The translations under genes and the position numbers were made by a program. A stretch of 63,273 nt of DNA, the filler included. It is 10 parts of 10 records of this genome, joined end to end, with 100 filler letters (N's around TTAATTAATTAA, not from the genome) between each part and the next. Parts side by side here need not be neighbours in the genome. Positions count along the whole stretch, not along the records: positions 22,418 to 27,174 come from SRR7504441_3458; 9 more parts are not named here. One strand, given 5' to 3'. The notes beneath the pieces are model-generated. The model saw nothing but the letters and a program-made list of their open reading frames with translations. It had not been told where the DNA came from and ran no database searches. Of this stretch, positions 12,036-57,314 are shown piece by piece. How positions within the stretch are numbered: the stretch's first letter is position 1; each line of letters begins with the position of its first letter.

Positions 12036-12135
12036 NNNNNNNNNNNNNNNNNNNNNNNNNNNNNNNNNNNNNNNNNNNNTTAATTAATTAANNNNNNNNN
12101 NNNNNNNNNNNNNNNNNNNNNNNNNNNNNNNNNNN
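12036..12135. other. Artificial contig spacer (first of nine)
   Basis: N44-TTAATTAATTAA-N44 with stops in all frames. Also at 15275-15374, 22318-22417, 27175-27274, 33449-33548, 37273-37372, 46026-46125, 52070-52169 and 57215-57314. Confidence 0.99.
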
Positions 12136-15124: not shown

Positions 15125-15422
15125 CTTGCATTGATTCTTGACCAAATAATTAATTATCATTGGGCAGGCGTGAGAGACCACAATTCGCGCCACTGGACGA
15201 TCCACGGCGCCGCCTCGTGCTTCTCACCTGAGGCCATGCACTGGCGAGTGTTGGCCGCCGTCCTGGCGCTGCCTNNNNNNNNNNNNNNNNNNNNNNNNNN
15301 NNNNNNNNNNNNNNNNNNTTAATTAATTAANNNNNNNNNNNNNNNNNNNNNNNNNNNNNNNNNNNNNNNNNNNNCTCACCACGCGTTGGAGCGACGAATT
15401 CACTGAGAGTCAGTTCGAGCCA

Positions 15423-22317: not shown

Positions 22318-22417
22318 NNNNNNNNNNNNNNNNNNNNNNNNNNNNNNNNNNNNNNNNNNNNTTAATTAATTAANNNNNNNNNNNNNNNNNNNNNNNNNNN
22401 NNNNNNNNNNNNNNNNN

Positions 22418-22524
22418 TGCAGAATCGGGGTGGCAGGACTGCGCTCATGTTGGCAGCTCAGCAGGGCCACAACGATATCGTAGCAGCGCTCACCAATGCA
22501 CCTGCACTGTTCGGGTCTTCATAG
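22418..22524 (+). CDS. Ankyrin-repeat protein, 3' end
   Basis: QNRGGRTALMLAAQQGHNDIVAAL..*. Confidence 0.8.
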
Positions 22525-22638
22525 ATCTGTTACACTGCTACAGCTCCTACTCGTATGCAGCTCTCCCGACTGAAACGCTAGTTCGCTAGATGCGTCATGC
22601 GCGTAAGAATGAATCAATGGCTACACTCTAATGTGGCC

Positions 22639-22658
22639 CTATTTAGATACTATTTAGA
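22639..22658. repeat. X9-TA-X9 scar
   Basis: ctatttaga-TA-ctatttaga between the convergent ankyrin and NRPS genes. Confidence 0.9.
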
Positions 22659-22749
22659 CCTGACCGGTCTCCTCAATAGATTGAATCAAATTAATCAATT
22701 GCACATCTATGTCCAGATATACTTCTATCTGTCACTCTAGTCCGTTGGC

Positions 22750-25700
22750 TCACTCAAGTATGCGCCTGATGATAGCCTCGACGAGCGGAGCGCCCTCGTG
22801 CTCATCAGTTAGCATGGTATAGTGATTTCCCGGCATCATCTCTACTTCTATCCCCGGTGCAAGTAGACTCCACCCCAAGCACCCGAGCCCCGCGTGGCTG
22901 TAGACCGACTCAAACCCCTCAACCGCCGGCTCGGTCGCCCGCAGCAGCACTGGCTTGAAGCACGCGTCCTCCGGGAGCGGCTCAGGCGCATAGCCCATCA
23001 ACGTCTGGGCGTTCACTGAATAGCTGCTGTAGATCTGACTCAGTTCACTCGCCCGCATTCCGCTCGGACAGCTCCCGTTCACCTGCACGTGCCGCAGGCT
23101 GCACTCTATTACCGCCTCCGGCTCATCGCTGGGCCAGCTCGCTCGAGACAGCACCGGCGCCGCGAACCGTGCACAAAGGTCTCGGACGAACCCTTGGAGC
23201 AGCTCTTCCGGCCCGGCCGACCGAGCGAAGAGCGCGGCGAACGTGTCGAGCATGATCACAGCTCCGAGCTCGCTGGGACTCGACAGCCGTCCGATCTCGT
23301 AGCACAGGTGCCCCCCAAACGACCAGCCAACCAAGTGGAGCGGACCTGCCGGCTGCACCAGCCGGGCCTGCGCCTTGTACGTCTGAGCAAGCTCTTGCAT
23401 GCTCGGAGGGCCGGCGCCCGGGCTGTGATTGGACTGCAACCCGAGCAGTCTAAAGTTGAGGTGTGTGGAGCCCCGCAGCCGGGCCGCCAGCCGGTTAAAG
23501 CTGGTCACTTCGCCACCAATCCCGTGGATCATAAACAAGTTGGTGGCCGGCCCTCCCGTCGAGCCGGTCGGGAATCGCACGATGTTCGGAGTCAAGTCAG
23601 CCGCGCTCGCCTGCCCGATCAAGCCGGCCATCTGCCGGGGTGTGCTCCGCTCGAGCAGCGCTGACACGCGCAGCTCGAGCCCGAACCGCTTGTTGATCAG
23701 ATTAGTGAGCCGAATCGCCGCCACCGAGTTGAGTCCGTACGCCCACACATCGCCGTCGATCGGGACTGGCCTGTTGAGCTGTTGGCTGACCAAGCTCCGC
23801 ATCTGCTCCTCGTGCGCGCTCAGCCGCGCCGCAGACTCCTCCGGCTCGGGCACAGCTGGCGGTGCTAGTTGGCTCCTGTCCAGCTTGCCGTTGGCGCTCC
23901 TCGGGAGCTCTGCGATCAGGAGCACCGCCGAAGGGATCATATATGCCGGCAGTGCCGCTTCGCACGCCGCCTGCACCGAGCTGCACACGAGGTCCGGTAT
24001 GCTGGCCGGCTCTGGCACACAGTAGCACACGAGCACGCCATCCAGCACTGCGGCTACCGCCCTGCGGACCAGCTGGCAGCGGGCCGCGCATAGCTCGACC
24101 TCGGCGAGCTCCACCCGAAACCCGTGCAGCTTCACCTGGGTGTCCAGCCGGCCAAGGAACTCGATCTGGCCGTTTGATCGCCACCGGCCCAGGTCGCCTG
24201 TCAGGTAAGATCGCTCGCTCGAGTCTGGGAGTGTCACAAAGCGCGAGGCGGTCTCCGCTGGGCTGCCCCAGTAGCCACGTGCAACGCCGACTCCGCCGAT
24301 GGCGATCTGGCCGGGCACGCACAGTGGGCTGGGCCTGGTGCTGTCATCAAAGACATACATTGCTTGATTGGCCATGGCGCGGCCGTACGGGACAGTTGGC
24401 CAGCTCGGGAGCTCGGCAGGGTCGCCGATCTCGTATATAACGGACCAGATCGAGCCCTCAGTGGCGCCTCCCATCGAGACCAGCCTGAGCCCGGGCAGCT
24501 GGATGGCTAGCTGCCCCGGGAGCTCTAGTGGTATATAGTCCCCCGACATCATCATCACCCGCAGGCTGCCCAGCTCCCACCGCCCGCCCGCACCCAGCTG
24601 ATCGCTCAACATCACCCCAAACTGCGGCACAGAGTTCCAGTGGGTCACCCTATACTCGGCCACCAGCTCCGCCAGCACAGCCGGGTCGCGTGTGCAGCCA
24701 TGCGCTGGGAGCACCAGCGTGCCCCCTGCAGCGAGCGTCCCAAACACGTCCCACACAGACAGGTCGAAGGTGAGCTCCGATATCCCGAGCACCACCGACT
24801 CACCCGAGAGCCCGAACCTGTGGTTGCAGTCGAGGATCGTGTTGAGCGGCCCAGTGTGCCCGAGCATCACGCCCTTGGGCTGGCCGGTCGACCCCGAAGT
24901 GAAGATCACATACGCCAGGTCCGCGCTGCCTGGAGCGCGCCCAGGGTTGAACTCGACCGGTGGCCAGCTTTCGCCCTTGAGCGTAACCGGGAGCACACTG
25001 AGCGCTTCGGGCCATCTCAGCTGGCGCAGGAGGTCGGGTTGGGTGAGCGCCACGCTGCACCGGCCAAGGTCGATCACCCGCGCTATCCGAGCCATCGGGT
25101 ACGCGCCGCTGACCGGCAGGTAGGCGCACCCGGCAAGCAGCACACCCACGGCCGCTGCGGCCTGCTCCCAGCCTTTCAGCATCACAATGGCTACGAGTGT
25201 GTTGTCCTCGCACCGGGCTGACTCGGCCCAGCGCCCACTGGCCTGCAGCGCCCGCCCGAGCTCGCTTGCCACCCTTGCAGAGACCTGCCCTAGCTGGGCA
25301 TACGTGAGCGACACCTCTGAGCAGACGACGCCCCGCTCAGGCGAAGTGCATCCGCTCACCAGCGCGAGCCGGTCTGGATGGCAGTGCATGGACCGGACTG
25401 CGGGCTCGACGAGCCATTCGGAGGGCACGGGCATGTGCGGGACTGGGTCGGCCGGACAGAACCCAGAGCGGGTGTCCACTGTCGATGACCACTTGCCAGG
25501 GAGGCCGATTAGGTCGCTCAGGCAGGCAACATGCGATTCCAAGATCTGCTCGGCCACTGCGCTCTCGACCAGGCTAGCCACTGCGTACGATACTTCCAGG
25601 TCGGAGCAGAACGCGTCCAAGAGCACGTGAGTCAGTTGGCCATCGTGGTGTCGTTCGTTCACCCCAGACGAGTCGAGGCCCTGGTCCGCACTGGTCGTGT

Positions 25701-27174
25701 GCTGCTCGAGCACACCCGGGCTCTGGATCCCGAGGACAAAGCTGCTGCTCCGGTGCTGCCTCATCCGGCGGACTAGCAGCAGGGGGTCGAAGTGCAGGTG
25801 CTGCAGGTCTTGAAAGAGCTGGCGCTGGACTCGTTCCAGGAAGCTCTGCCAGCTGTCTGAGGGAAGCAACTCGATCTCTAGGATGATCTCAGTCCGGGCG
25901 TCCAGCTCAGCTGCATGGCCGGGGGCGCACATCGAGAGCATCCCGATGCAGAAATGGTTTGATCCGCAGAAGGCGGCGATCACGGCGGCCAAGGTTCCCA
26001 CAAACAGGACACTCGGGCTGAGGCTGTGTGCCTGGGCAGTCTGTCGAATGTCTGCAATCGGTGGGCCGGCCTGGTGAATCGTCCGAACTCGATACTGCTC
26101 GTCGGTGCTTGTCAGCGGGATCACTGCAGGTTCGGGCAGGGAATGCAGCCGAGACATCCAGTATGCTTCGGATTTGATGTACTGGGCAGTGCCCTTGAGC
26201 ATCGACTTGTAGAGCGCATATTCAGCGGGGCTGACTGTGGCATGCGACTGAATGGCCTTTGGCCTACTTGTTGCAGTAGCTACCATGATATCGGCGAACA
26301 GTGGACGCGTCAGCGTTGGGGAAGCGAAAGCGTGTGGCAAGTTTACAGACACCACTGCTCTCCCTTTCGATTCATCCAAAAGGTGGACAGTGAGCAGGAA
26401 GGCGGGGAACGGCCTGCCCACGATTCGGGCCTCCATGCTTGCTTGCCTGAATTCAGTCCAGTGGGCTGCTTGCTCGCATTCGCTCTTCGACCTAAGGTCG
26501 ATCACGTTAGGCTGGAAGCTCTGTACGGTGCTCGAGGATGCTGGCAGTGTGCACCACATCCAGGTGTCCTCTGGCGCTTGTGTGAGGAACGTGCGCAGTG
26601 CAGGATATTCGGAAAGGGCCTGATGGAGCACGCTGTTGAACATGGACAGCTCGAAACCGTGGCTGAACTCGTACTCCATGTAATTGTGTGCACACAAGCC
26701 ATCCCAGCCAGTGATTGAGAACTCTCCAAGCACATACGAAAGCTGTGTTGGGCTGAGGGGCCAGCAGAGCTCGTTGGCGCACCCAACCATGTGTAGCAAC
26801 TCAGGCTCAGGCTTTCCGACTGACTTCTCTACAGGCATCTTGGCTTGACTGCTAGCCTGCCCTTCTCTTGCATCTGCTACGAGCTTGCCTAGCCCAGCAA
26901 CAGTGGCGTGCTGAAGCACAGCTGCCGCGGAGGGAACCCCGGACACACCGCTCCGAATCAACTCTCGGTGCAGGACCGCAGCCTGGAGGGAACTGAGCCC
27001 GAGCTGGATCAAACTGCGGTCGGGGTGCAGCTCGGAGGCTGGTAGCATGAGAACGCGTGCACAGACCTCTGCCACCATCGCCTCTGAGGAGGTGTGTGCC
27101 AGAGTGGCGTCGCCGTTTGCGCTACTTGACAATGATTTGAGGGGCTCGGGCAGTGCCTTCCGGTCCACCTTGCC
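22750..27174 (-). CDS. Nonribosomal peptide synthetase, 5'-truncated: [A]-PCP-Cy-A(Cys)-PCP-TE
   Basis: KVDRKALP (A10 of upstream A domain); LGLSSL (PCP); WPLSPTQLSY..CAHNYMEY and AYWMSRLHSLP (Cy); YVIFTSGSTGQPKG, FDLSVWD, YLTGDLG, NGKLDR (A); YGLNSV (PCP); GWSFGG..NHYTML (TE). Confidence 0.93.
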   Translation of the reverse strand, partial: GKVDRKALPEPLKSLSSSANGDATLAHTSSEAMVAEVCARVLMLPASELHPDRSLIQLGLSSLQAAVLHRELIRSGVSGVPSAAAVLQHATVAGLGKLVADAREGQASSQAKMPVEKSVGKPEPELLHMVGCANELCWPLSPTQLSYVLGEFSITGWDGLCAHNYMEYEFSHGFELSMFNSVLHQALSEYPALRTFLTQAPEDTWMWCTLPASSSTVQSFQPNVIDLRSKSECEQAAHWTEFRQASMEARIVGRPFPAFLLTVHLLDESKGRAVVSVNLPHAFASPTLTRPLFADIMVATATSRPKAIQSHATVSPAEYALYKSMLKGTAQYIKSEAYWMSRLHSLPEPAVIPLTSTDEQYRVRTIHQAGPPIADIRQTAQAHSLSPSVLFVGTLAAVIAAFCGSNHFCIGMLSMCAPGHAAELDARTEIILEIELLPSDSWQSFLERVQRQLFQDLQHLHFDPLLLVRRMRQHRSSSFVLGIQSPGVLEQHTTSADQGLDSSGVNERHHDGQLTHVLLDAFCSDLEVSYAVASLVESAVAEQILESHVACLSDLIGLPGKWSSTVDTRSGFCPADPVPHMPVPSEWLVEPAVRSMHCHPDRLALVSGCTSPERGVVCSEVSLTYAQLGQVSARVASELGRALQASGRWAESARCEDNTLVAIVMLKGWEQAAAAVGVLLAGCAYLPVSGAYPMARIARVIDLGRCSVALTQPDLLRQLRWPEALSVLPVTLKGESWPPVEFNPGRAPGSADLAYVIFTSGSTGQPKGVMLGHTGPLNTILDCNHRFGLSGESVVLGISELTFDLSVWDVFGTLAAGGTLVLPAHGCTRDPAVLAELVAEYRVTHWNSVPQFGVMLSDQLGAGGRWELGSLRVMMMSGDYIPLELPGQLAIQLPGLRLVSMGGATEGSIWSVIYEIGDPAELPSWPTVPYGRAMANQAMYVFDDSTRPSPLCVPGQIAIGGVGVARGYWGSPAETASRFVTLPDSSERSYLTGDLGRWRSNGQIEFLGRLDTQVKLHGFRVELAEVELCAARCQLVRRAVAAVLDGVLVCYCVPEPASIPDLVCSSVQAACEAALPAYMIPSAVLLIAELPRSANGKLDRSQLAPPAVPEPEESAARLSAHEEQMRSLVSQQLNRPVPIDGDVWAYGLNSVAAIRLTNLINKRFGLELRVSALLERSTPRQMAGLIGQASAADLTPNIVRFPTGSTGGPATNLFMIHGIGGEVTSFNRLAARLRGSTHLNFRLLGLQSNHSPGAGPPSMQELAQTYKAQARLVQPAGPLHLVGWSFGGHLCYEIGRLSSPSELGAVIMLDTFAALFARSAGPEELLQGFVRDLCARFAAPVLSRASWPSDEPEAVIECSLRHVQVNGSCPSGMRASELSQIYSSYSVNAQTLMGYAPEPLPEDACFKPVLLRATEPAVEGFESVYSHAGLGCLGWSLLAPGIEVEMMPGNHYTMLTDEHEGAPLVEAIIRRILE

Positions 27175-27952
27175 NNNNNNNNNNNNNNNNNNNNNNNNNN
27201 NNNNNNNNNNNNNNNNNNTTAATTAATTAANNNNNNNNNNNNNNNNNNNNNNNNNNNNNNNNNNNNNNNNNNNNCATTGGGCTGCGAGCACAGGGTGAGC
27301 CGAGGGGAAGGGGCCGGTCAGAGGGGGGGTCGGCTCGACTGGCAGGCAGGAGGGGGTGTTCTTACCGTGGCCTCACGGTCTCAGCATCTCCTCCTCTTTA
27401 TGAAATGGCGCCCGCTATCCTGGCGATGAGTCTGTCTGTCAGTCTGTCCCTACAGACTTCGTAACCGACGCAGTAACAGACGCATGTCTACGTGTACACG
27501 TAGCAACGGCACATTGATTCGTCCGGTGTGACGGCTAATTGTAGCTAAGTGAAATTGATTGCGTCTACGCCGCTACGCTCAAGGAATGTGAAAGTGAAAT
27601 TGCGTCTGTAGCCGTACTTCTCCTTCGGTGGGACCAAGTGATTGGTACCCATATCTTCCGCATATTGGCGCTTGGCCACCCCGGCACCCTCCGATCCGTA
27701 ACTCTCCGCCCGCCGATCGCGATACCGGTTTGCCGCATGTAGCTGCGCAGCTGCGCATGCATCTCTACAACGAGGTCTCCCGCCTAATCGGACATTAGTG
27801 TGGCGTGCCGACATGACGCCAACGCTCGTCCATTACGAATTCGAGGCGGCAACGCGTGACTTGTCCCTCTTGCAGCAGTTGCGGGCTGTTGTACATGTTG
27901 GCCTTTATGAATGATCGATTTTTTTTTTCAGTCGGTTGCGGATTCGCCACAC

Positions 27953-33448: not shown

Positions 33449-33643
33449 NNNNNNNNNNNNNNNNNNNNNNNNNNNNNNNNNNNNNNNNNNNNTTAATTAA
33501 TTAANNNNNNNNNNNNNNNNNNNNNNNNNNNNNNNNNNNNNNNNNNNNGCCCGCCATAGCTCTCGGTCCTCCGCAGCCTCCACAAAGCTCTTCCACTGAC
33601 GAAAGTACTCATAAATACTTGTAATTATGACTACCTGTAATCG

Positions 33644-37272: not shown

Positions 37273-37372
37273 NNNNNNNNNNNNNNNNNNNNNNNNNNNN
37301 NNNNNNNNNNNNNNNNTTAATTAATTAANNNNNNNNNNNNNNNNNNNNNNNNNNNNNNNNNNNNNNNNNNNN

Positions 37373-40300
37373 CAGCTTGTCGTCAAGCTCATGCGAATAC
37401 TTGTAATGTGGAAACCGAACTTTCAGATTCATGATGCACTGATCAGAAGCGCTAAGAAAGCCATCGAAAGACTCTCGGATGAAACGCACATTGTTTGCTA
37501 GCATTGATAGAGCTGCGTGTGTCCTAGGACGGGTTTTGTACCGCAATACCTCCCATTCAGATCTATTGCGTTGGTTAAGTCGCCCACTCATCCATCCTGA
37601 GCTAGACGAGCGAGAAAGGATAGCTGCCTTTACGTCGTCTAGTGTACCCGCCGCGAGCTTATTAATGTCGCTGACCCCAAGTGTTTGCATTACCTGAAAC
37701 CTACCTCTGAATTGTGGCGTATTGGCCAACTCCAGAAGCGTGGAGATGTATCCCACATGCCTGAAGCACTGCAAAAAGAAACAGTTTAGGCAATCAATGT
37801 AGCAAGTATTAAATTATGCATGTGGTGGTACCTGGGCTGGCTTTTCGTCACTATACCATCGTTCTCCTTGCTGCCAAGCTTTCACCTGTAGGCAATCCTA
37901 CCAATCAGGAAACAGCCAGCGAGCGGCTTAGGAGGCGCTACCGAAGCGCAGCTGCCAAGGAGTGGCGTCCGTACGCAGTTTATGTACATGTTCATAAACT
38001 CAGTCTCTTTCAGACACTGTGGAACTCCAAAGTTCTGGAATGAGCAAATTCTTTTGACCATGGCATCCATGAATTGTGTCGCAGAACTCGAGTGGTGACC
38101 CTCGCTATCAGAGCGGTTTGCTCGTTTCTGTGTTGCCTGTGGGGTCATAGTCATGTCTACATCAGTGCTGAAAGCAAGAGCACTCAGCTCGTCGTCCATA
38201 GCTATCATGATTGCAGCAGCACGATGGGCCTCTCTCTGTTCCCTCTGCATCCACTGCATGCGTACACTATCGGTCCACAGCGATGCTTTCTCCTGGTACC
38301 CAACGCCGTGCACATAGCATTCAAGACATCGTGTGTAGTGTTCAAAGGCTTCACTCATTATCGAATTCCTGTAGCTCTGACTCCCACAGCACCGTTTAAG
38401 CCACTGCTTAGTTTCATCGATCAGTGGTAGCCCTTCAAGAATTCTCTGAACACTTTCACAGGCATCAAATTTTCGAAATTCACTGGATGCAAATGGGTCT
38501 ACACCTCTGAGCTTGTCACCCAGTCGAGGGTTCAACCTGCAGAACAGTGCCAGCAAATCAGAACGAGGACCATCTATCAGCCCAGGCACTTGTATACATG
38601 CGTGTTCATCTAAGTATTGATCTTATTAGGCAGCAAGACTTACGATCGCTGGTTGCTGTCAAATGCTTGGACAGCACAAGCAAAGGCGATAGTAAAACCC
38701 ATCCATCTCTGAGATAGCACGTCCGCCTGCGTCTTCAGCTGTTGCCTAGTGGTGGACAGGCTTGCATAGGAGCCGCTAAGCGACAAGCCCCTGCGGGAGT
38801 CAAGAAACATTTCCATTAGGTATTCCGTCAATCCACCGGTCTCCACCAAGTTGAAACGGTCAAGGTTCTGAGCCATGGCCAAGCGGTTACCTAACTTGGT
38901 ACAAGCCTGGCCAAGATTCGCAAGCTTGATAGCATACTCTAAACACTCGTAGTTCAAGCCTCCGTAAGTCCCAACACAGCTGATTCTGAACCACTCTTTG
39001 AACACATTGGACGGATGGTGACGGCACTTCTTGTTCGCATCGATATTTCTGTTTGCCATGATCGTCTCTGCGATCACACAGAGACGATCTGCAGCTTGCT
39101 GCATAAAGTCATTCGAGGGTACCTCCACACCTCCCACTTTCGTTGGCACGCTAAATGCTGTGACATAATCAATTGGCTGAAGGAACTCGCGAATTGGCTG
39201 GACTATACCACTAGGTTGAAAGTACTCTTCTGGGTCATCTTGTTGAACGCGATCATCGCCTTGAACATCGCCTTCGACAAAAACAATGTGCTCCAGCGCC
39301 TTTCCAATCTCATCGAGAACACTGTCGATCTTTTTCAGGACATCGCCAAGGTGCTGGTGGCTGCAATAGTGCCCGACAAGTTCTTGGTTTTTTGCCATCC
39401 ACGCGTGTAGGCGATCGATTAAAAGACTTGTATTGATCTTTGCTCGTGAAATCGGCTCGCTGATATCTATCTGTAAGTTTTTCCTCAAGATTGTTTCTAG
39501 CTGACTTCTCGTCATGGAGTTCCTTTTGAATCTATGGTCTCGATCAAGATACTCCCCGTGCTGTTCCCATAGTACATAGTCGAGAATACTATTTAGTTTG
39601 ACAGACCATCGGCACATTCTGCCTATTGGAAACTCGTGGCTTTCGACGCCCTCTCTCTTGTCGTTCTCGTAGCAGAACAAGAATAGGTCAATGAGTCCCA
39701 GGCCATGTTTTGCCTCACTGTTTGGTACTCCTTGCCAAAGAAGAAGCACAACCTCCTTAAAGAGATCGTCGTCATACCAACCATCAACTATTTCTTTGAT
39801 GTCTCTTAGGCTGTATTCGCTTTTTGGAAAGTCTGCCTTGACCACTGGGTCAATCGCCTCAGGAATGTAGATTGTGTGCAAAAATCTGTTAAGCAAAGAG
39901 GCCTCCTCTTGTACATCTGCTTCCATTTTTTCGTGCAAGGCTTCCATGTTTTGGCACTGGGTGTACATTTCCATCCTGACGTGCATAAGCGCCGAAGGCA
40001 ATCCAACAATTTTGCTGAGAACTTCCACTACTTCTTCAGTCAAATCCACAATCTTGTCCTTGAACTTGTCCAGAGTAGACTGCAACTCTGCTCTAGCATC
40101 CAGCATGGAGGACCCAAGGATGTGAGATCCATACTCTTGTATCTCTTCGGTATTTTTGCGTCCCTCGCTTGTCTCTTTGTGAAACGTCACTACATCTGTC
40201 AAATAAGCTCGTACGTCGGCTCTTGACGCCTTTTCATTGAGGATAGCGCTGTTGAGATTATCCAGTGTGTCTCCAAAATCCTGAATATGCTCCCAGGACG

Positions 40301-43300
40301 AACTGGTCGTACTTTCAGCAGCAAGCCTACTGATGGCATCTGGCGTGATTGGCATTGGCAGTCCGACGCGACAAAACCTGGTTCCTTTGTCGTTCTCTAC
40401 GATCGTTTCCATGTCCTTCAGGATTTCTTCCATAGCAAAGCTGCCTTTCTTTGGATTTCGGCAGACGTGCCAAAGAGACATGTCGACTTGGCAGACTGCA
40501 GCCAACATGAAATGAGCGGGTGCGACCTCTTGACCAGACAGCTGCTCCCGCAGGACATCGACATGATCGAAGTTTCTATTTGTGAACCTTGTAATGAGCT
40601 CTTTGGCTGCCTTTGAGACCTGGTTTGGCGATGGCTTCTCGGTGTTGGAGTCACTTATCCGTCTTGAGGAACGCATAGTGCTAGCACGCTGTAGAACAGT
40701 ACCCTTAGACACGCTTTCGACCGCCTGTAAGACAGTCTGACAGCACGCTACTGCGCAGGTCCCAGGACTGCTGTTAGTTGCTTTGTCCCTGACTTGCATT
40801 TCGAGTAGCTGGCGCTCCAGTTCGGCCATGCCGACCCTTGCATTTTCAGGTTGCTGCCAGGCTATCTGGATGCTCTCGCTCATCTCAGTAATGGTACGAA
40901 TCTTGAACTGTTGAAGAGAGAGCACATAATACAAGAGCCTCGGGCACCACCCATCAGAATGCAACAGATTTGGATTGGTTACGCGGTCCCAACTGTCAGT
41001 GGACGACCACCAAGATTCGGGCTGCTGGGAGTGCTCGTATTTGCGTTCAGTGAGCAGCTGGGCGAGCTGCTCCATATCGATTGCACTATCCGAAAAGAGT
41101 TCCTCAACTCCAGTGTGATTCCTTGGGTACTTGTGGCCACCAACCCGATCGTCTCCTTTGTCGTTTGCCATTGGTGATTCTAGTGCGACAACGCTGTCGA
41201 GAAGGAGTCTTTCGATGCGCTCCTTTGGCCAATCGATGCTGCACATGTCCTCATCCGCCTTTGCCTGGTCTTTGGATATCACTTCGTCATCAATGTGAAG
41301 CGGCTCCTCCGTAGCTCCAAGATGTGCCTCCCTCTCAGGTCTGAACTTCCACAGAGAAACAAGGAACACCAGCCTGATCATCAAGAGCTGAACTAACACT
41401 CGGTAAGCAAGCTGAGTAGGCTCAGCCCGCAGCGAACAGTGGCCATCCCGATGATTGGTGAATGAGTGTACCAAATGATAGCATTCTCGGAAAATGGCAA
41501 TGTCATCCTGGTCCACTTGGTCACCAGGCTTGATGAACCGTGGTGGATCATCCTCGGACAGCAGCTGCAGCCGGTTCACATCTCCCAGAAGCTGTTTGAC
41601 CATTTCATTCGTCCACTCAGACACTACCGAGCGATGAAGGTGTTCCTCCAGACGAATGAACGGCAAGTGTTTATAAAGGAACCCATCGTCCTTATCTAAG
41701 TGCCCATGCATGCCGTTGATCACGAGCAGCATTTGCTGAATATTTGTATTCGAGCTTCGAAATGCAGAATCCTTCAGAGAGTGGTACATCTTTTTCGCGG
41801 ACTGCCGCAGCAAGAAGCGTAGAGCGTCGGTGCTCGAAGTGATGTCTTCATTTACATACTGGGTCGAAATGGCACCATGGAGCAGAAGATCGGGATCAAC
41901 AAACATCTGTGCCACCTGTGAGGCCACACAGCAGCAGTTAGGCGTGACTCTGAGCAAGTGAACATACTTTTGACATGACTTTGGCAATGAGAACGCGATG
42001 TTGAGGCCCACCGCGCTGATGCTGGGGAACACAAAGCGCAGGGTCAAACTTGATGATCAAGTCGACAAGTCGAGCCCTGAGATCCAAAATTTGCGCCTTC
42101 AAGTGCACATCTGCGAAGTCTTGGGTTCCAAGATTGTAGTTTTGGAGCGAGTCCACCTTTGTGCCATCTTGCTGTATCATTATTATCTGGCACACAGGTG
42201 AGACACGGCTCACAAGCAGTCACCTGGTCGCTGTCTGGCTCGACCTGTAGTTCGATGCCGTTGCGCTCCCTGATCCTGGACCAAACGCTCCGATTCATCA
42301 ATTCAAGCACTGAGGTTAAGGTTTTGAGCAAGAATTCTTGGTGCATCCAATCCTCCCAGTCCATATCCTCCTTTGCATAGGACTGCATAAAATGAAAATA
42401 CCGGTACGCCAATCCAAATGCAGAATAGATTTCATGCAAGTATGGATATGCTTTGCACATATGCATTGACTCTCGAAAGCAGTTGAGCATGGATCCCGGA
42501 TCCAATATTGTGTTTCGGTGTCCACAACTACACATGTACAGATTCCTGACCCCTTGGATGCTCTCTGAGAACTCGTTTTCCTTGTCGAAAATTTGTACAA
42601 ATAGCTCATTGCTCAGACCTGGTGTCCAGCGCACTGTAGCTGGGAAAGTGGATAGCACGAGGTACTGGTACAATTTCTGCCTGAAAAACGCGCCCACGTA
42701 CCATTCCACCTTTGTTGCTCTGGCAATTGCCACCTCGACATCATTGATAAGCCCTTCCACCTTGCCCTTGCCATCCGGGTGCAGGAAGAGTGCGGTCAGA
42801 CCCCGCGTATAAGAGGTATTCTGGCTGCTGAATTGGTTGCTGAGCAGCTTGCGCAACTTTTGGATATCTCGCTGTTCGGCTGCGTCGCGCCCAGCATTTA
42901 CCCACTCACGCACATGATGAAGCGAGCAGCCAGTACCAGCCGATTTGATCTGGGCGAACCTATCGGGGTCTACATCATTGTATGGATCTATGTAGTCAGA
43001 AGCTGGCATGAGTTGATCATCTGGACCCTCTGCGACAGTTTGCCAGCGATGAGACTGGAATATTGGTCGGAGATAATCGTCCTTGAGCTGATTGAGCGCC
43101 TGCTCGATGGTGCGCGAAACTTCAGCTGCTCGCCTGTGCCACTGAAACAAGAATCTGGAGCTCCATCTAACTTCAGACCCTCGCTTGTCCTTGAGCTTGT
43201 TGATCAAAACAAACAGGCCATCCATTGCAGTTACAATATGCTGGTGGTTGAATGTGGATACACTCACCTTGACCTCACCCTGTCGGTAATCTTGTTGCTC

Positions 43301-45823
43301 AAACTCTCCAGCTCTATAGCAGAGAACTGTATTGTATATATATATGCGCTGACGTTCAGCCCAGTCCACGTAGTAACGAAGGAGAGTGGACGCCTTTGGA
43401 TTGTTTTCGAGTCCTTCTGGATCGCCTGGGCTGAACCAGAGAGCATTCAGAGCATCTAATGGAGAGAAACTACAGAGCCGATTGATTCTATGCTGTGGCT
43501 TGGTCACATCAGCCGGATATGCTTTGCCTTCATGTTTCTTGATGCGGCCACCTTCGTCGACACACAGACCGAGCGCCTTTGCTGTGAAGATGTGCTCCTC
43601 AAAGCTGATCATTGGGAAGTAGTGCTCAAGCTTATCCCAGAACTCATCCTTCTGCAGCGCATCCATAGTCTGCCAGGCATTGGTCCGCGGATTAACGGCC
43701 TCCCAAGACTCGCAAGGTTTCGAGAAAGCTGCAATACCAAGAATCAAACACTCATACGCCATTCGCTGCTTGACTGGGGTGTCAAGCTCACGCCATTTAG
43801 TCTCTTTGGGGATCTGTGAAGCCCCAGTCAGATCCACATATTTGTTAAGCCAGCTGTCTTCATGCAATAGCTTGCTGGCAGAGGCACGCAATTCTGGCCT
43901 GCGGTGGTGACTGCCCGTATCCCCAAGTGTGCAGCTGTGGAATAGCATGCTAGCCTCGCCGAGGTCTCGCACAAACGTGTTGACGATGTCTGGGTCTGAG
44001 TGCAGCTGTCGGATCTTCTCTGCAAACTGAGGGATCCCTGGCTCTAGAACAGGTTTGCCTCTGAGTACGAAGTGCGTCAGGATCCCAAGCTGCCACATGT
44101 CTGCTTTTTGGCGACCAACAATATCGTCCCCCGGCAGAGGCACTGCCATTGTGGTGAGATTGGTGGCGTTCGGATCAATATTCTCTGGTGCCATCCATGC
44201 AAGCAAGTTTAAGTTGGCTTCTCTGTTTGCAAGCAGGGGCCACAGAGGAGGAAGTAGCTTGACGCCCTTTAATCCATACTGCGACGAGTGCTGTACAAAC
44301 ACCGAGTCTGGATTCACAGCGCAGTGTGCCATTCCTAGCTGATGCAGCACTGCCAGGGCATACGTCACTATAAAGATGACTTCCGCCTTCTCAGCCTCTG
44401 TCAGCACCCCTCTCTCGACCTGCCACTAAGTGACTCTAACGCCAGCAGCCAATGTCACCTGATACCGCAGCGTAGTCCTAGGGCAGCTCTCTGAGCTCAG
44501 TGAATCCAGTACAATCGACAGCCTTTGCTCCCTCCCAGGTCCAGCTGGTGAGAGATAGACTTTAGTTGCCACTACAAACGGCAGCTTGTCGGCGCCTTGC
44601 ATCAGTGTGGTGGTGTTCTCGAGCATGTGGTCAAGCCGGCTGCTCTCGGAGCCAGCATCCAGGTTTTGGTGCTGCAGATATCGCTGTATCTTGAGCTGCC
44701 AAGCCCAATACTCAACCGGATTCACATGAAACCCACACCTTTTGTTCTAATAGCGCCAAGCACTGCAGCCCAAGCTCGCTCTCCCCCTTCACGTCAAAAA
44801 GCGGCCCGGGTACAAACGCTGTCCGGGGCAGGGAGAGCACCAGCTGTGGCTTGTCATGCCGCTGTGAGTTGCACATGGCCTCGCTTAGCTCTAATTGGAC
44901 CCTGTCGATCCGGAGGAAGGCCGGCCGCACATCGTAGTGCTCGCTCACCCCAAACTGGTCAAACAGCGAGAAGATGTGAGGGTTGAGCCGCACCCGCACC
45001 TGCCCCCCGCTGGCACTCGGACAGCGAGCGGCAGCACCTCGGCCCTGAAGCTCTCCGGGTCCCGAGGCACGTCAAACAGCTCCTCCCACTCGAGGTGCGC
45101 CGAGTCCTGCCCGACGTCCTCGTCGTTCATCATCTGGAACGCCACCTCCGCAAATTCGATCGTGTCAAATCCGAACCTTAGCACGTTGTCCCGTCTGAGC
45201 ACTTCCATGTACCGGCTCATGATTGCCTGCTCCTTGAACAGGTCGCGCTGCCCGAGTTCGTCCGGCTGCTGCTGCTGCTGCTCAGCCTCAGCCTCCCGGA
45301 GCAAATAGTGCAGGTTGACGTACCACAGCTGCAGCTCCTCCTGCGCGTGCGAGAGCGGTGCCATCTCGAACCGGTCAGACGGGCCAGACACGGTCAGCCG
45401 GGACTCGGTGAGCTGGATGGTGGCGCCCCGGCGGAGGCTGAGCACCCGGGCCGGCTTGGGGTCCTTGGGGCCGAGCATCAGCTTGAGCTCCTTCTGGTTC
45501 CGGTCGAGCAGCACGTACCGCTTCGGCCAGCCCTGCAGGTGCAGCGTGTTGACCTTGAACCACGAGCCCAGCCGGTGGCGGGCGCCTGACATGGCCTGCC
45601 GGCTCAGACTGAGGATGTCGTTGAACAGGTTCCGGGCCTCAGCCTGGGTGATCGGCCGCGGTTTGGAGGTGTTGGCGCCCAGCGTGTGGTCGTACTTTTT
45701 CCAGAGGGCTTTGAGCTCGACCAGCGAGATGTTGGCGAAGTCGCGGCCCGGGATCTGGTCCAGGATGATGTCGATCTTGCACGCGCCACGCTGCTCCTCC
45801 TTGGACGAGAGAACACCGCCCAT
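37373..45823 (-). CDS. Giant (>2500 aa) myristoylated PH-domain/pseudokinase protein, 3'-truncated
   Basis: MGGVLSS; GWPKRYVLL..ELQLW (PH); LAVLHQLGMAHCAVNPDSV, WMAPE, KADMWQLG, RASASKLL (kinase C-lobe). Consecutive minus-strand ORFs can be joined by short introns. Confidence 0.7.
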
Positions 45824-46127
45824 CCTGCTGTCTCCTCCTCACCGGATCGGCAGCAGCGGCCTCCTCCTCCTCACCGGCCTCGCAGCTGCTGCCTCCTCCT
45901 CATCGCACCCGGCTCGGTGGCACCACTGACTGGACGCTGTCCGGGATTATTCCGTTGGCATCAGGTCCGTCGCTTCGACCGCTGGTACTGTTGCATGCTG
46001 TTGCGGCTGTTGTAACAGCAGTACGNNNNNNNNNNNNNNNNNNNNNNNNNNNNNNNNNNNNNNNNNNNNTTAATTAATTAANNNNNNNNNNNNNNNNNNN
46101 NNNNNNNNNNNNNNNNNNNNNNNNNCT

Positions 46128-51842: not shown

Positions 51843-52460
51843 ACTTGACCCTCTCTCTCCATCGTGCATGATTGTGTACATGCATGCAGCAGAAAATGGA
51901 ATAAATCTCTACGTGCATGATATGGTTGTATCACTGCCCTACAGCTCTAGTCGGATTCTGCATTCTCCTATTTGGACCTTTGCCAGCGATCACCAGCAAT
52001 ACCACTGCACAGTTAACCGCTTCTGCTTGTATGGGCAGCCATCTGGTTGCCCGGGGCGCAAGGCGCCAGNNNNNNNNNNNNNNNNNNNNNNNNNNNNNNN
52101 NNNNNNNNNNNNNTTAATTAATTAANNNNNNNNNNNNNNNNNNNNNNNNNNNNNNNNNNNNNNNNNNNNTGAGGCGGGAGTGAGGGGTCTAGGCTCAAAG
52201 CAAGTCGAGCCTAGGCTGGACCCATCAAACTTAAATTAAATTTGTCCCCCCCGGAGATGGTTTACTAACCTAGGTAGCTTTTGAGCATAATCGTTTCAGT
52301 GTATGTACGAGTAATCACACGATCAAAACGCCCCCGCCCGCTGGGACGACTGACCTGTCACTTTCCCGACAGCCTACGTCTGCGGACCTGATCGAGTCAC
52401 AAGTCCTCCGACTCAATAAGATTAACACACGCACCGCGGAGTGCAAAGGTCGTCGTCAAA

Positions 52461-55400
52461 ATGGCCACGCCGCGCAGGGACCTGCGTTTCGGGCTCAACG
52501 GGCAGCTACGGGTGGAGGACACGGTCTCCCCTCAGCGCACCTTGCTCGACTACCTCCGGACCGTCGGGCTTACGGGCACCAAGTACGGCTGCGGGGAGGG
52601 CGGCTGTGGAGCTTGGTGCGCGCCCGCTGCCTGCCCGCCGACAAGCGGGGCAGTACTGTGGTTGTCCAATCGCCGGAGGGGCCGCCGCGAGCGGTCAACG
52701 CGTGCCTGGCTCCGCTCTGCTCAGTCGATGGCTGCGCGGTGCGCTCTCAGAAGCCAAGAGGTCGAGGGCGGGTAGGTGACCACAGTAGAAGGCATCGGCG
52801 GCCCGCGGTCAATGCACCCAATCCAGCGGGCAGTCTGCGACTCGCACGGCTCGCAGTGCGGGTGCGCGCTCTTTGCGGCTCGGTCAGTCGGGCTGACAGG
52901 TTCTGCACCCCGGGGATTGTTATGTCCATGTACGCACTTCTCGGGGCGGCCGACCGGCTGCCCTCTGCGGAGCAGGTTGAGCACGCGCTGGACGGGAATC
53001 TGTGCCGATGCACGGGTCAGCCGCCGCCTGTTAGGCTCGGAGCCGGGTGGACAGGGTACAGACCGCTGCTGCAGGCATTCAGAGAGTTTGTGGGCGATGA
53101 CTCCAAGCCTGGTGCCCGCGCAACCAGCTGCTCGGCTCAGGCCGGGCCAGTGCCTCCAGAGCTGCTCCAGCGCACCATGCCAGCTGGACTGGCTGCACAG
53201 CTGTCTGGGCTGGTTGCTGAGCCGCTCGAGATTGTGGGCGCAAGCTGCAGCTGGTTCCGGTACATGCGAGGCTGGGCGCCCCTGACATAGGTCAGGCCGG
53301 CGAGCCTAGACCAGCTGCTCCAGCTCAAGCAACGGCACCCAGCCGCCAGGCTGGTGGTGGGCAACACCGAGGTAGCCGCCGTTGGCTGGGCTCAGCTCGG
53401 TGGCAGGTTGGAATTGAAGTAGAATTCTCCAATGCCAAGTACCCTGTGCTGATATCCACGGCGGCGGTGCCCGAGCTCAACCGGTTGGACTGCTGGCGAC
53501 CGGAGGCTCATCATCGGGCGGGCAGGTGCTCGGGCTCGTGTGACGCAGTGCAGCTCGGGGGCGCTGTGCCGCTCACTCAAGTGCTCGAGCAGCTCAAGGC
53601 GGCGAGTGCAGATGTAGCGGGAGACCACCGGGCAAGGATATGGCAAGCGGTGATCGCGGTTAGTCGGCGGCTGGCGAGCTGGTTGCAGGTGGAGCGGCAG
53701 CTGCACTGGTTTGCCTCGACGCCAATCCGGAATACAGCATGCATTGGTGGCAACCTTGCGACTGCTAGCCCGATTTCGGACCTGAATCCACTTCTGATGG
53801 CCTCCAAGGCCACGGTGTGAAGATAGAATCCGGCTGTGATTTTATCTTCGGGCTGTGGCAGGCGGTACTGGCATCTGCTGCAAGAGGCGAGCGGACAGTG
53901 CTCGTGCGAGAGTTTTTCACAGGCTACCGCGCCACTGTGGTCAAGCCAGATGAGGTAATTGTGTCGGTTGCCATCCCGGCTGCCGCCCCTGGAGAGTGGT
54001 TCATGGAGTTCAAGCAGTGTAGGCGGCGGGATGATGACATCGCAATCGTGAATGCAGGGATGCGTGTGCTGCTTGATCTATCTCACGTAGTGCAGGATGC
54101 CTCGCTCGCATTTGGTGGGATGGCAGCCAAGAGTGTTAATGCGATGCGGACAGAGCAATATCTAATCGGAAAGAAATGGGACCAGGCTCTGCTTGAAGGT
54201 GCACTGGCTCTGCTTTCAGAGGGTGGTGGCGGGGCTGTCCTGACTGATGAGTCAGAAGGATACTCGAGGACCGCAGTGCTGGCTGCACAGCTGGCCACTG
54301 CGCAACCAGCGGCGCAGTCAGAGAGTATCCCCGCGTCCAGCGCTATGACGAAGCCGATCCCAGACCTTCCGATGCCTATGGGCGCCCCTGGGGGCATGGA
54401 GCAATACCGGTCAGTGCTTGCGCTGTCGTTCTTCTACAAGTTCTTTGTTCACGTGGCAAATCAGACAGGCTGTGTTGCTATGTCCACAAAGCAGCTCTCT
54501 GCGTGCACCGCGTTCAAACGACCCGCTGCACAAGGGCTCCAGCACCTCGACTACACTGCCGATGAGCTCACTGCCGCTGGCTCAAAAATCGGAGTCCCTG
54601 TTAAGCATTGCGCTGGCCACCTTCATGTCACAGGCACTGCAGAATACACGGGCGACATACCGGTTGCACCCGATCACACGTTTGCCCATCCGGTCCTCTC
54701 GCAGCGGCCACATGCCCGGATTGTTGCTGTGGACTCCACAGCAGCACTCGCTGTACCTGGTGTTTTGGGCTGGGTAGACAGTTCTAGCATCCCAGAAAAT
54801 GGGACAAACAGCTATGGAGTTGCTGCACTGATGGATGAGGTGGTATTTGCTCAGCAGACTGTCCACTGCGTTGGTCAGCTGATTGGGCTGATAGTCGCCT
54901 GTGATGCTGCGACTGCCAAGGCTGCGGCTCTGCTTGTCCAAGTCGAGTACCAGGATCTACCGGGAGCGGTGCTCAGCATTGAGGAGGCAATAGCAGCTCA
55001 GTCCTTCCTGCCGCCAGTTGCAGGCAAACAGCTTCACTGTGGGATGCCAATCGACGAGGCACTCGGCCAGTCGGAATTGGTGCTCGAAGGCCAGATGCGC
55101 ATCGGGGGTCAGGAGCATTTTTATCTTGAGACTCAGGCAACACTGGCAGTGCCCTGTGATGGCGGGGAGTCTCTTGAGGTGGTTTCGTCCACGCAGAATC
55201 CGACCAAGACACAGATGTGTGTTGCCCGCATCTTAGGGCTCCCTGCTGCACGTGTCCAGTGCAGTGTCCGCAGGCTTGGAGGCGGGTTCGGGGGTAAAGA
55301 GACTCGGAACATCTTCCTCAGCACAGCAGTAGCTGTGGCTGCTCTGGCGCTTGACAGGCCTGTTCGTATTGCACTTTCTCGTGAGGATGACATGTGTAGC

Positions 55401-57094
55401 TCAGGAACGAGGCATCCCTACATGGGCCAATACCGAGTTGGATGTTCGTCTTCTGGAATGATCCAGGCGATCGATTATGAAATCTTCTCGAATGGGGGGC
55501 ACACAGCGGACCTGAGCTGGCCTTCGCTCGAGCGGGCCATGTTCCATGTTGATAATGCGTACAAGATCCCCAACATGCGAGTCATGGCACGAGCATGCAA
55601 GACAAATCTACCTTCCAACACTGCATTCCGCGGGTTTGGGGGTCCGCAGGGCATGATGATGATGGAGACGGTAATTGAGCATGTTGCAAGACACTGTGGC
55701 ATCTCACCACTGCAAGTGCGGCAGCAGAATCTGTACCGTGCAGGGCAGCCGACACACTACAACATGATACCGCAAGATCCTAGTCGACTGGACCTTTGCC
55801 TGAGCCAAGTGGTCTCACAGTTTGGTCAAGATGGATATGACACTGCTGTTGCTCGTGTTGCTGAATTCAATGCAGCTCATAGACATCGCAAGCGTGGGCT
55901 AGCAGCAATCCCAACCAAATTTGGAATGAGCTTCACAGCAACTTTCATGAACCAGGCCTCTGCGCTGGTGCATGTCTACGCCGACGGCACTGTACTGGTC
56001 AACCATGGCGGCACAGAAATGGGGCAGGGCTTGCACACAAAAATGTGCCAGATTGCTGCCACCGCATTCCAAATACCACTTGCGCAAGTGTATGTAGCTG
56101 ACACTTCAACAGCCAAGTGTGCCAACACATCGCCCACCGCAGCCTCAGTGTCTGCTGATATGAACGGTGCTGCGGTCCTTGCAGCCTGTGATGCGATCAA
56201 CACCCGGCTGAAGCCGATTCGGGCTAATTTGCCAGACGATGTCAGCTTCGCCCAGCTGTGCTCTGCAGCATTCTTCCAACGAGTAGACCTCTCCGCACAT
56301 GGTCACTATAAGACTCCCATGCCAGGCTTTGACTTTGAGAAAGGTGTGCCCATGTCTATGGCCTGCGCATGCGACGCGCTGGTTGTAGGAACTGGCCGGC
56401 CGTTCCATTACTTCTCGTATGGAGCTGCAGTTTCTGAGGTCGAGGTAGATACACTCACAGGCGACCACCAGATACTGCGGTGCGCTGTTATGGCTGAATG
56501 GCTGAACAAGTATTTCATTACCGAACATTGTATTTTCAGGTCATTTATTGTCCATGATTGTGGGAAGAGCCTCAACCCCGCAATTGATATTGGACAAGTG
56601 GAAGGTGCTTTTGTCCAGGGCATGGGTTACTTCACAGTTGAAGAGTCAGTCTGGGCCACCAGTGGACCCAGAGCAGGTAGGATGGTGACACGCGGCCCTG
56701 GTGCTTACAAGCTGCCCTCGTTCAATGATATTCCAATTGATTTCTCGGTCAAGCTCTTGGAGCACAGCTCTGAGCACACCGCGACCCCTGTGGTCCACTC
56801 CTCGAAGGGGGTCATTCGCAACTTCGGCCGTTGCTGACCCAACGGCAGGTGGGTGAACCGCCCCTGTTCCTAGGAGCCTCCGTCTTCTTTGCTATTCGTG
56901 ACGCGATCTCTGCTGCTCGAGAGGAGGCACCTGCCCAAATATATGCTTGATCTCAGTGTGTGATTAAGGTGGGACTGAGCGGTTTCTTCCAGCTGAATGC
57001 TCCTGCTAGTGCTGAACGAATCCGGATGGCGTGTAGCGACAGAGTCACCCGTCGGTTCGTAGGAGATGACTTTCAACCAAATATCTGCTGCTAG
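52461..57094 (+). CDS. XDH: Xanthine dehydrogenase
   Basis: [62 protein letters not shown] after removing 35-42 nt introns (e.g. 52616-52653, 52739-52775, 52862-52899, 53016-53054, 53260-53295, 53372-53406, 56927-56968). Confidence 0.97.
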
Positions 57095-57314
57095 CAAGCT
57101 ACTGCATTCGAGCAGCCGGAGCAATGATAGGGAGCAATGCATTGATGCAATGCATTGAAGTAGCTTGTTGAGCGCACCTTTGGACGCACGTGCTTCATAC
57201 AAAACTTCACAATTNNNNNNNNNNNNNNNNNNNNNNNNNNNNNNNNNNNNNNNNNNNNTTAATTAATTAANNNNNNNNNNNNNNNNNNNNNNNNNNNNNN
57301 NNNNNNNNNNNNNN

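Follow-up and report, generated by a model that had tools for sequence, protein, structure and literature searches.

A terminal nonribosomal peptide synthetase module with a rewired heterocyclization-clade domain on a contig that probably belongs to a Telonema-like protist

Bacterial nonribosomal peptide synthetases (NRPSs) include modules in which a heterocyclization (Cy) domain is followed by a cysteine-type adenylation (A) domain and a peptidyl carrier protein (PCP), as in BmdB, EpoB, PchE, HMWP2/Irp2 and BlmIV-type proteins of the bacillamide, epothilone, pyochelin, yersiniabactin and bleomycin systems. To our knowledge, heterocyclization domains are regarded as essentially bacterial. Here we describe the NRPS gene fragment on contig SRR7504441_3458, which is one piece of a window of 63,273 nucleotides (the whole stretch of DNA that was analysed). 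The window gene resembles the bacterial modules in its PCP-Cy-A-PCP order, its DL[YW]N[LM]S[LM]IWK-type A-domain pocket, the aspartate of the Cy catalytic dyad and the tyrosine of motif Cy1, and among solved structures the bacterial modules match it best in sequence and fold. In contrast, its Cy-like domain (Cy*) is only 20-25% identical to bacterial thiazoline-type Cy domains, and the gene differs from bacterial thiazoline and thiazole modules in having no DxxxxD motif, dyad threonine, helper glutamine, gating phenylalanine, NxTxFNR stretch or oxidase domain, and in a host that is most likely a eukaryote.

Assembly-line genes of bacterial type have been reported from eukaryotic genomes, namely those of Symbiodiniaceae and bdelloid rotifers, in the available portions of two papers (PMC6361889; PMC11258130). 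The condensation (C) domains of Symbiodiniaceae are described in the available text as LCL type, not Cyc (PMC6361889), whereas the window gene groups with the Cy clade and apparently comes from another lineage. A large survey, in the part accessible, places Cyc among the bacterial subtypes and recognises no eukaryotic NRPS producers besides fungi (PMC10212144). A full-text literature search returned no paper joining Telonema with the term nonribosomal, and a search on heterocyclization NRPSs in eukaryotic microalgae returned, by title and abstract, none on a protist Cy domain.

We favour the reading, at a probability of roughly 0.68, that the contig is a nuclear piece of a heterotrophic marine or aquatic protist near Telonema subtile and encodes the terminal module of an NRPS of bacterial ancestry with a rewired Cy*. 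From the observed architecture, the intact motifs of the A, PCP and thioesterase (TE) domains and the residue pattern of Cy*, we infer the following chemistry. A chain from the missing upstream module or modules would be held on the first carrier (PCP1), the A domain would load cysteine or a close analogue on the second (PCP2), Cy* would link both by an amide bond, and the TE would free the product.

Architecture of the module and its adenylation domain

The frame of the NRPS gene is open without a stop from the contig end at 27174 down to its TGA codon, and matches to Pfam and NCBIfam give the domain order (A end)-PCP-Cy-like-A-PCP-TE (coordinates in Table 1). The open reading frame (ORF) and the domain profiles thus agree with a first-pass annotation of this DNA, made from the sequence alone, which had proposed [A]-PCP-Cy-A-PCP-TE in one unbroken frame. 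The first eleven residues resemble the end of an A domain and contain GKVDRKALP, which we take to be an A10-like motif; this resemblance implies that at least one further module lies upstream and is missing from the contig. The Condensation profile PF00668 matches residues 167-476 with 35.4 bits (cut-off 30.6), with PP-binding and AMP-binding on either side. The A domain passes TIGR01733 over residues 624-1041 (347.5 bits, cut-off 317.4), and the TE passes PF00975 (66.8 bits, cut-off 26.4), with GWSFG and GNHY in its translation, presumably the serine and histidine motifs, respectively. In comparisons with three relatives introduced below (P0241, P0397 and P0248), no in-frame mini-introns, sought as insertions of at least 15 residues, were seen in the ORF.

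The ten pocket positions of the A domain were taken from alignment columns anchored on FDxS, WNSVP, SGD, GGxTE and GK, where we assume the anchor positions of GrsA numbering. They read DLWNMSMIWK, which reproduces the code first read by eye. The bacterial A domains most like that of the query (40-48% identity) lie downstream of Cy domains. Of the 60 bacterial A segments that matched best, 46 by hand count have the pattern DL-x-[ND]-x-S-[LM]-[IV]-W, and DLYNLSLIWK (11 segments) and DLYNMSLIWK (7) are the commonest codes. The query is like the commonest neighbour code at 7 of 10 positions and like that of P0035 from Methyloversatilis (DLWNMSMIWT) at 9 of 10, and the pocket code of P0397, read by eye, is identical to its own. 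We take the DLYNLSLIWK-type family to be specific for cysteine, and the source names of relatives (pyochelin synthetase, epothilone synthetase B and BlmIV) are consistent with this. The code had been described at first pass as close to cysteine codes, and it does belong with the Cys-type codes found in bacterial Cy modules. In a quick tree of the query, P0397 and 41 segments picked by code from the 60 (43 rows in all), the query and P0397 form a pair among the bacterial A domains of Cys type; support is weak (85-86). While the donor is not pinned down by this tree, the placement fits a bacterial origin of the A domain and agrees with the proposed horizontal acquisition from bacteria. The metallophore or toxin pathway that the first-pass annotation had in mind is speculation, since the contig carries a single terminal module and none of those upstream of it.

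Descent and active site of Cy*

Several lines of evidence bear on the ancestry of the C-type domain. In a search of the PCP-C region against solved structures, all five sequence matches were Cy domains or modules (EpoB, HMWP2 Cy1, FmoA3, BmdB Cy2 and Irp2 Cy2), with an E value of 7e-9 for EpoB. A quick IQ-TREE search was run on 82 rows: the query, the environmental relative P0241 (ENV in the residue comparisons), and random samples of the bacterial Cy segments (45 of 203) and of the HHxxxDG segments (35 of 151). A branch with full support (100) in the Shimodaira-Hasegawa-like approximate likelihood ratio test has the HHxxxDG domains on one side and the Cy domains, the query and ENV on the other, so the domain does not group with ordinary condensation domains. 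An AlphaFold model of Cy* (predicted local distance difference test 81, predicted template modelling score 0.79) was compared with known structures by Foldseek. The ranks shown, 1-18, were all Cy structures with template modelling (TM) scores of 0.76-0.81, and ordinary C domains scored 0.67-0.76. A search of the ESM Atlas yielded generic condensation clusters only. Sequence, tree and modelled fold all place the C-type domain nearer to Cy than to HHxxxDG condensation and epimerization domains, and by descent we assign it to the heterocyclization clade.

The active site of Cy* is quite different from that of its bacterial relatives. Residues were compared by aligning the query to the 203 bacterial Cy segments, which were taken from the matches of an exhaustive search (see below). 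DxxxxD is present in 192 of the 203, and at this place the query has VSVNLPHAFASPT (N-L-P-H-A-F) and ENV has VSVTLPYELGQHM (T-L-P-Y-E-L). Changed in both query and ENV are also the arginine of Cy1 (R in 187 of the 203 bacterial segments), the N, T, F and R of the NxTxFNR stretch (176, 172, 169 and 202, respectively), the F of DFT (199), the P, T and S of the PVVFTS stretch (200, 182 and 184), and two glutamines of QTPQVxLDxQ (196 and 167). Cy* retains Tyr147, Gly150, Gln513 and Asp520, the last being Asp in 196 of the 203. By motif spacing, Asp520 corresponds to the aspartate of the catalytic dyad; at the other sites linked to cyclodehydration, the query has Pro486 for the dyad threonine, Phe522 for the helper glutamine and Met415 for the gating phenylalanine, and ENV has Pro, Trp and Asn. 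According to the available text of one study, mutation of the Asp-Thr dyad, the nearby glutamine or the gating phenylalanine severely lowers cyclodehydration (PMC9547227).

Because three of the four cyclodehydration-linked residues are replaced, classical thiazoline formation by Cy* appears unlikely. With a site rewired in this way, Cy* would be expected to keep its condensation activity, and canonical thiazoline-forming cyclodehydration would be weakened, absent or supplanted by a different reaction. In three lineages Cy* is maintained with 39-48% identity and with novel motifs in common (WPL[ST]xxQ, TG[LW]DG, SLPEP, PSDSWQ and HVxLDA), and one of the lineages, T. subtile, transcribes the domain. 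Since three lineages keep it with common new motifs and one transcribes it, Cy* is taken to be functional, and its presence both among the transcripts of T. subtile and in an uncultured relative points to a conserved lineage-specific subtype, not to decay. Hence the first-pass label of a thiazoline-type Cy domain holds in part: Cy* groups with Cy by sequence, tree and fold, but DxxxxD and most cyclodehydration residues are gone. Cy* is a strongly rewired Cy derivative instead of a canonical Cy, for which "Cy-derived, probably non-cyclising" would be an apt label. A more far-reaching idea, which we put forward tentatively and against the odds, is that Cy* may be a eukaryote-specific subtype of the condensation superfamily that arose from a bacterial Cy, with a rebuilt site (His516 and Asp520 in HVxLDA), was inherited in Telonemia and related uncultured marine flagellates, and performs non-classical chemistry on a cysteine acceptor.

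The first-pass annotation had the same gene and host in mind with a Cy* that still works as a thiazoline-making heterocyclization domain, which would now require that the losses be compensated elsewhere. Descent from the Cy clade, the Cy fold, the retained Tyr147 and dyad Asp520 and the Cys-type code of the A domain all speak for such a domain, and the change of the Cy1 arginine to E or S and the loss of the first aspartate look as though two salt-bridge partners had changed together. The two sources on the DxxxxD aspartates, each as far as its accessible text goes, point in opposite directions, one calling them structural rather than catalytic (PMC9547227), and the other, Rausch et al. citing Keating et al., calling them critical for both steps (PMC1894796). 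The replacement of three of the four key residues, in the query and in ENV alike, and the absence of the near-invariant NxTxFNR and PVVFTS stretches nevertheless make a working thiazoline-forming domain improbable in our judgement.

Host of the contig

In a search with the whole protein, only distant relatives were found, mostly proteins of named bacteria and of metagenomes with 25-45% local identity. Cy* was searched separately with exhaustive HMMER against 1.84 billion representatives, giving 1165 matches at E <=0.001. Its only close relatives are P0241 and P0248; the other 148 among the matches listed are 20-36% identical. P0248 (298 residues) is a Trinity transcript of Telonema subtile (EukProt EP00656_P021200) that is 46-48% identical to Cy* over 142 residues, and it also resembles the C-terminal part of the query TE (33% over 84 residues, E 1e-8). 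In this transcript a TE-like part precedes the start of Cy* in the same frame, whereas in the window gene a PCP precedes Cy* and the TE stands at the end. An adapter-like tail at its end indicates that P0248 is truncated or chimeric.

P0241 (772 residues, 40% identity, E 3e-66) comes from environmental Logan/ENA contigs of 4.4 and 11 kb. Its sequence stops after ...FTSGTT, and P0397 (444 residues, 57% identity to query residues 763-1195) begins with eleven unrelated residues followed by GEPKGVM, so that the end of the one and the start of the other coincide at query residue 763, inside TSGTTG/xPKG (the slash marks the break). The Pfam AMP-binding profile is shared out between them, with positions 3-174 in P0241 and 175-384 in P0397. 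The start of P0241 and the end of P0397 also fall in the middle of the architecture. Judged from these proteins, the break looks like what exons and an intron would look like to a prokaryotic gene caller. The environmental gene therefore has the rewired Cy* and the A code of the window gene and differs from it in being divided into at least two ORFs, broken at the A3 motif, and in an N-terminus that is not a PCP. Residues 1-30 of P0241 resemble what we take to be the end of a polyketide ketoreductase, with no Pfam match at E <=0.01; this relative may be a polyketide synthase-NRPS hybrid.

Searches of other collections were largely negative. Patterns specific to Cy* had no relative in 185,579 bacterial and archaeal species, represented by one genome each, and the best A-domain match in those genomes was 40-51% identical. 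Among 2.9 million viral contigs there was no relative, and JGI metagenome contigs gave none either, whether searched with the protein or with the Cy* alignment. Four DNA metagenome runs from three studies (aquatic, marine and estuary) held the gene only as contigs of 97-372 bases at a depth of 2-8; these are mostly 95-100% alike, and none spans or usefully extends the gene.

The composition of the contig was compared with that of bacterial NRPS loci. The NRPS piece has an observed/expected CpG ratio of 0.87, CA/TG of 1.28 and AG/CT of 1.21, and the other nine pieces of the window have CpG ratios of 0.59-0.91 and CA/TG of 1.15-1.44. The control consisted of the bacterial loci of the most similar A domains, 79 in number, 27 of them with a GC content of 0.55-0.70. 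In these 27 GC-matched loci the CpG ratio was 0.89-1.53 (median 1.15) and CA/TG was 0.89-1.21 (median 1.04). None of the 27 was as extreme as the NRPS piece on either measure, and one of the 79, of lower GC, was so on both. The correlation of relative synonymous codon usage with other ORFs (0.32-0.91) was dropped as evidence for want of a bacterial control, and the dinucleotide test with controls was used instead.

A second, unlinked piece (52170-57214) carries a xanthine dehydrogenase (XDH) gene that is 65% identical to that of T. subtile over 978 residues, all other matches being at 53% or below. Gaps against the T. subtile protein coincide with in-frame, stop-free GT...AG stretches, which indicates that the organism has very short introns that are invisible to an ORF scan; long ORFs of this organism may conceal introns. 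For the XDH and NRPS pieces alike, although they are unlinked, the nearest named relative is thus T. subtile. From the composition, the relative in a Telonema transcript and the intron-like split of the environmental relative, the contig is very probably the protist's own and not a bacterial contaminant. The first-pass annotation had reached the same view, in part from an "X9-TA-X9 scar", and this argument has fallen away. The supposed scar is an artificial spacer, N44-TTAATTAATTAA-N44, which occurs in nine identical copies in the window, has stops in six of six frames and is uninformative on the host. It is a joining device of assembly or concatenation and carries no biological information. 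The window consequently consists of ten unlinked contigs, of which only the NRPS-bearing piece is physically tied to the NRPS gene, and neighbourhood arguments across the artificial spacers are void.

Several points weigh against the reading of a Telonema-like host with a rewired, probably non-cyclising Cy*. With regard to the domain, the Cy tree was quick, the stem of the query and ENV is very long (2.65) and their place within the Cy side is not settled; the fold model was built from an alignment containing bacterial Cy sequences and is biased towards Cy; the published HMWP2 residue numbers were placed on the query columns by motif spacing, not by a numbered alignment; and the functional call is made from residue identity alone, so that a compensated site could still cyclise if the DxxxxD aspartates are structural. 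With regard to the host, the Telonema match comprises just the two segments of 142 and 84 residues in a transcript with an adapter-like tail, from a culture transcriptome that may hold contaminants, and transcription is seen for the T. subtile homologue, not for the window gene itself. The split between P0241 and P0397 is known from proteins, not DNA, and could be a frameshift. The NRPS ORF has no detectable intron, and the XDH piece has two. Eukaryote-like linkage on the contig consists of 34 ankyrin codons only, and ankyrin repeats occur in bacteria too. In tetranucleotide usage the NRPS piece correlates with the others at 0.52-0.74, in the lower part of the between-piece range (0.52-0.84).

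If the contig were instead bacterial, derived from prey or a symbiont or mis-binned, its shortness (4.76 kb), its intronless ORF and the fact that every named whole-protein match is bacterial would be readily understood, the ankyrin repeats would be no obstacle, and its membership, hanging on the assembler or binner that joined the pieces artificially, could be an error. Such an origin is improbable, given that the bacterial matches are distant (20-36% in Cy*, at most 51% in the A domain), that 185,579 prokaryote species lack a relative of Cy*, and that the gene is closest to a Telonema transcript and to an environmental gene divided between ORFs. Moreover, the dinucleotide signature lies outside that of the 27 GC-matched bacterial NRPS loci and within the range of the eukaryotic pieces, and the AT-richer spacer of 225 bases between the convergent genes on the contig has no terminator. 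It is still less probable that the module is a decaying relic with a catalytically dead Cy* in a gene out of use. Nearly all hallmark Cy residues are indeed lost, but no stop interrupts the 1474 codons, the motifs of the A, PCP and TE domains are intact, two other lineages have a Cy* at 39-48% identity with common new motifs, and the T. subtile homologue is transcribed. An origin from some other eukaryote or a giant virus in the sample, for which one might cite the lack of linkage between the pieces, their GC range of 0.52-0.69 and the ankyrin genes that are common in giant viruses, is hardly credible when the NRPS and XDH independently point to T. subtile as nearest named relative and 2.9 million viral contigs hold no relative.

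Other features of the window and significance

The first-pass annotation had also noted the end of an ankyrin gene on the NRPS contig, and both the translation and Pfam bear this out (Ank, 22420-22521 on the plus strand, E 2.5e-5, 24.8 bits, cut-off 21.1). No terminator-like hairpin was found in the 225-base spacer between the convergent stops. The ten pieces are 3.1-12 kb long with GC of 0.52-0.69. The remaining nine include clearly eukaryotic genes, namely those for XDH, a dynein-related AAA protein, an EF-hand ion channel, and WD40, LRR and fn3 proteins. In the piece at 37373-46025, two ORFs of 1135 and 787 codons adjoin on the minus strand (38640-42047 and 42044-44407) with no Pfam match at E <=0.001. 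At 57622-61803, also on the minus strand, an ORF of 1393 codons has an ion-transport domain and many EF-hands. The window has 16 copies of the heptamer ATTGATT or its complement, and several lie in non-coding, AT-richer stretches on different pieces (for example at 22612, 22693, 27513 and 27554). Rfam and transfer RNA scans of the window gave no match. As a practical lesson, contigs joined by spacers may pass for genomic context.

Table 1. Features of the NRPS-bearing contig and related elements of the window. Residue numbers refer to the translated NRPS ORF; a dot marks features without strand.
Feature	Coordinates	Strand	Details
NRPS ORF	22750..27174	-	1474 codons and TGA stop (22750-22752); 5' end lost at contig end
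Tail of upstream adenylation domain	27142..27174	-	Residues 1-11, GKVDRKALPEP; translation, weak alignment to A10 region of P0397
PCP1	26881..27075	-	PP-binding, residues 34-98, Ser in GLSSL; Pfam E 3.1e-7
Cy-like domain (Cy*)	25480..26799	-	Residues 126-565; assigned by Cy fold and Cy clade
Adenylation domain	23890..25389	-	Residues 596-1095, code DLWNMSMIWK; AMP-binding 596-967, AMP-binding_C 1023-1095
PCP2	23623..23811	-	PP-binding, residues 1122-1184, Ser in GLNSV; Pfam
Thioesterase	22753..23541	-	Residues ~1212-1474; Pfam match ~1212-1469, E 4.4e-18
3' end of convergent ankyrin gene	22420..22524	+	34 codons of ankyrin repeat and TAG stop (22522-22524)
Spacer between two convergent stops	22525..22749	.	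225 bases, AT-richer, GC 0.32-0.48 in 50-base steps
NRPS-bearing contig piece	22418..27174	.	4757 bases, GC 0.622; N44-TTAATTAATTAA-N44 spacers at both ends
Nine identical artificial spacers	12036-12135, 15275-15374, 22318-22417, 27175-27274, 33449-33548, 37273-37372, 46026-46125, 52070-52169, 57215-57314		N44-TTAATTAATTAA-N44
XDH in-frame stop-free GT...AG mini-introns	56344-56388, 56480-56539	+	45 and 60 bases; gaps against T. subtile protein

If a Cy-derived module is conserved in a Telonema-like flagellate, assembly-line peptide synthesis would reach a poorly known and ecologically widespread predator lineage, and the module would constitute a natural experiment on which residues of a Cy domain are dispensable. 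Were the proposal of an inherited, eukaryote-specific Cy* subtype to prove true, this would be the first assembly-line natural-product pathway revealed in the deep-branching heterotrophic Telonemia lineage.

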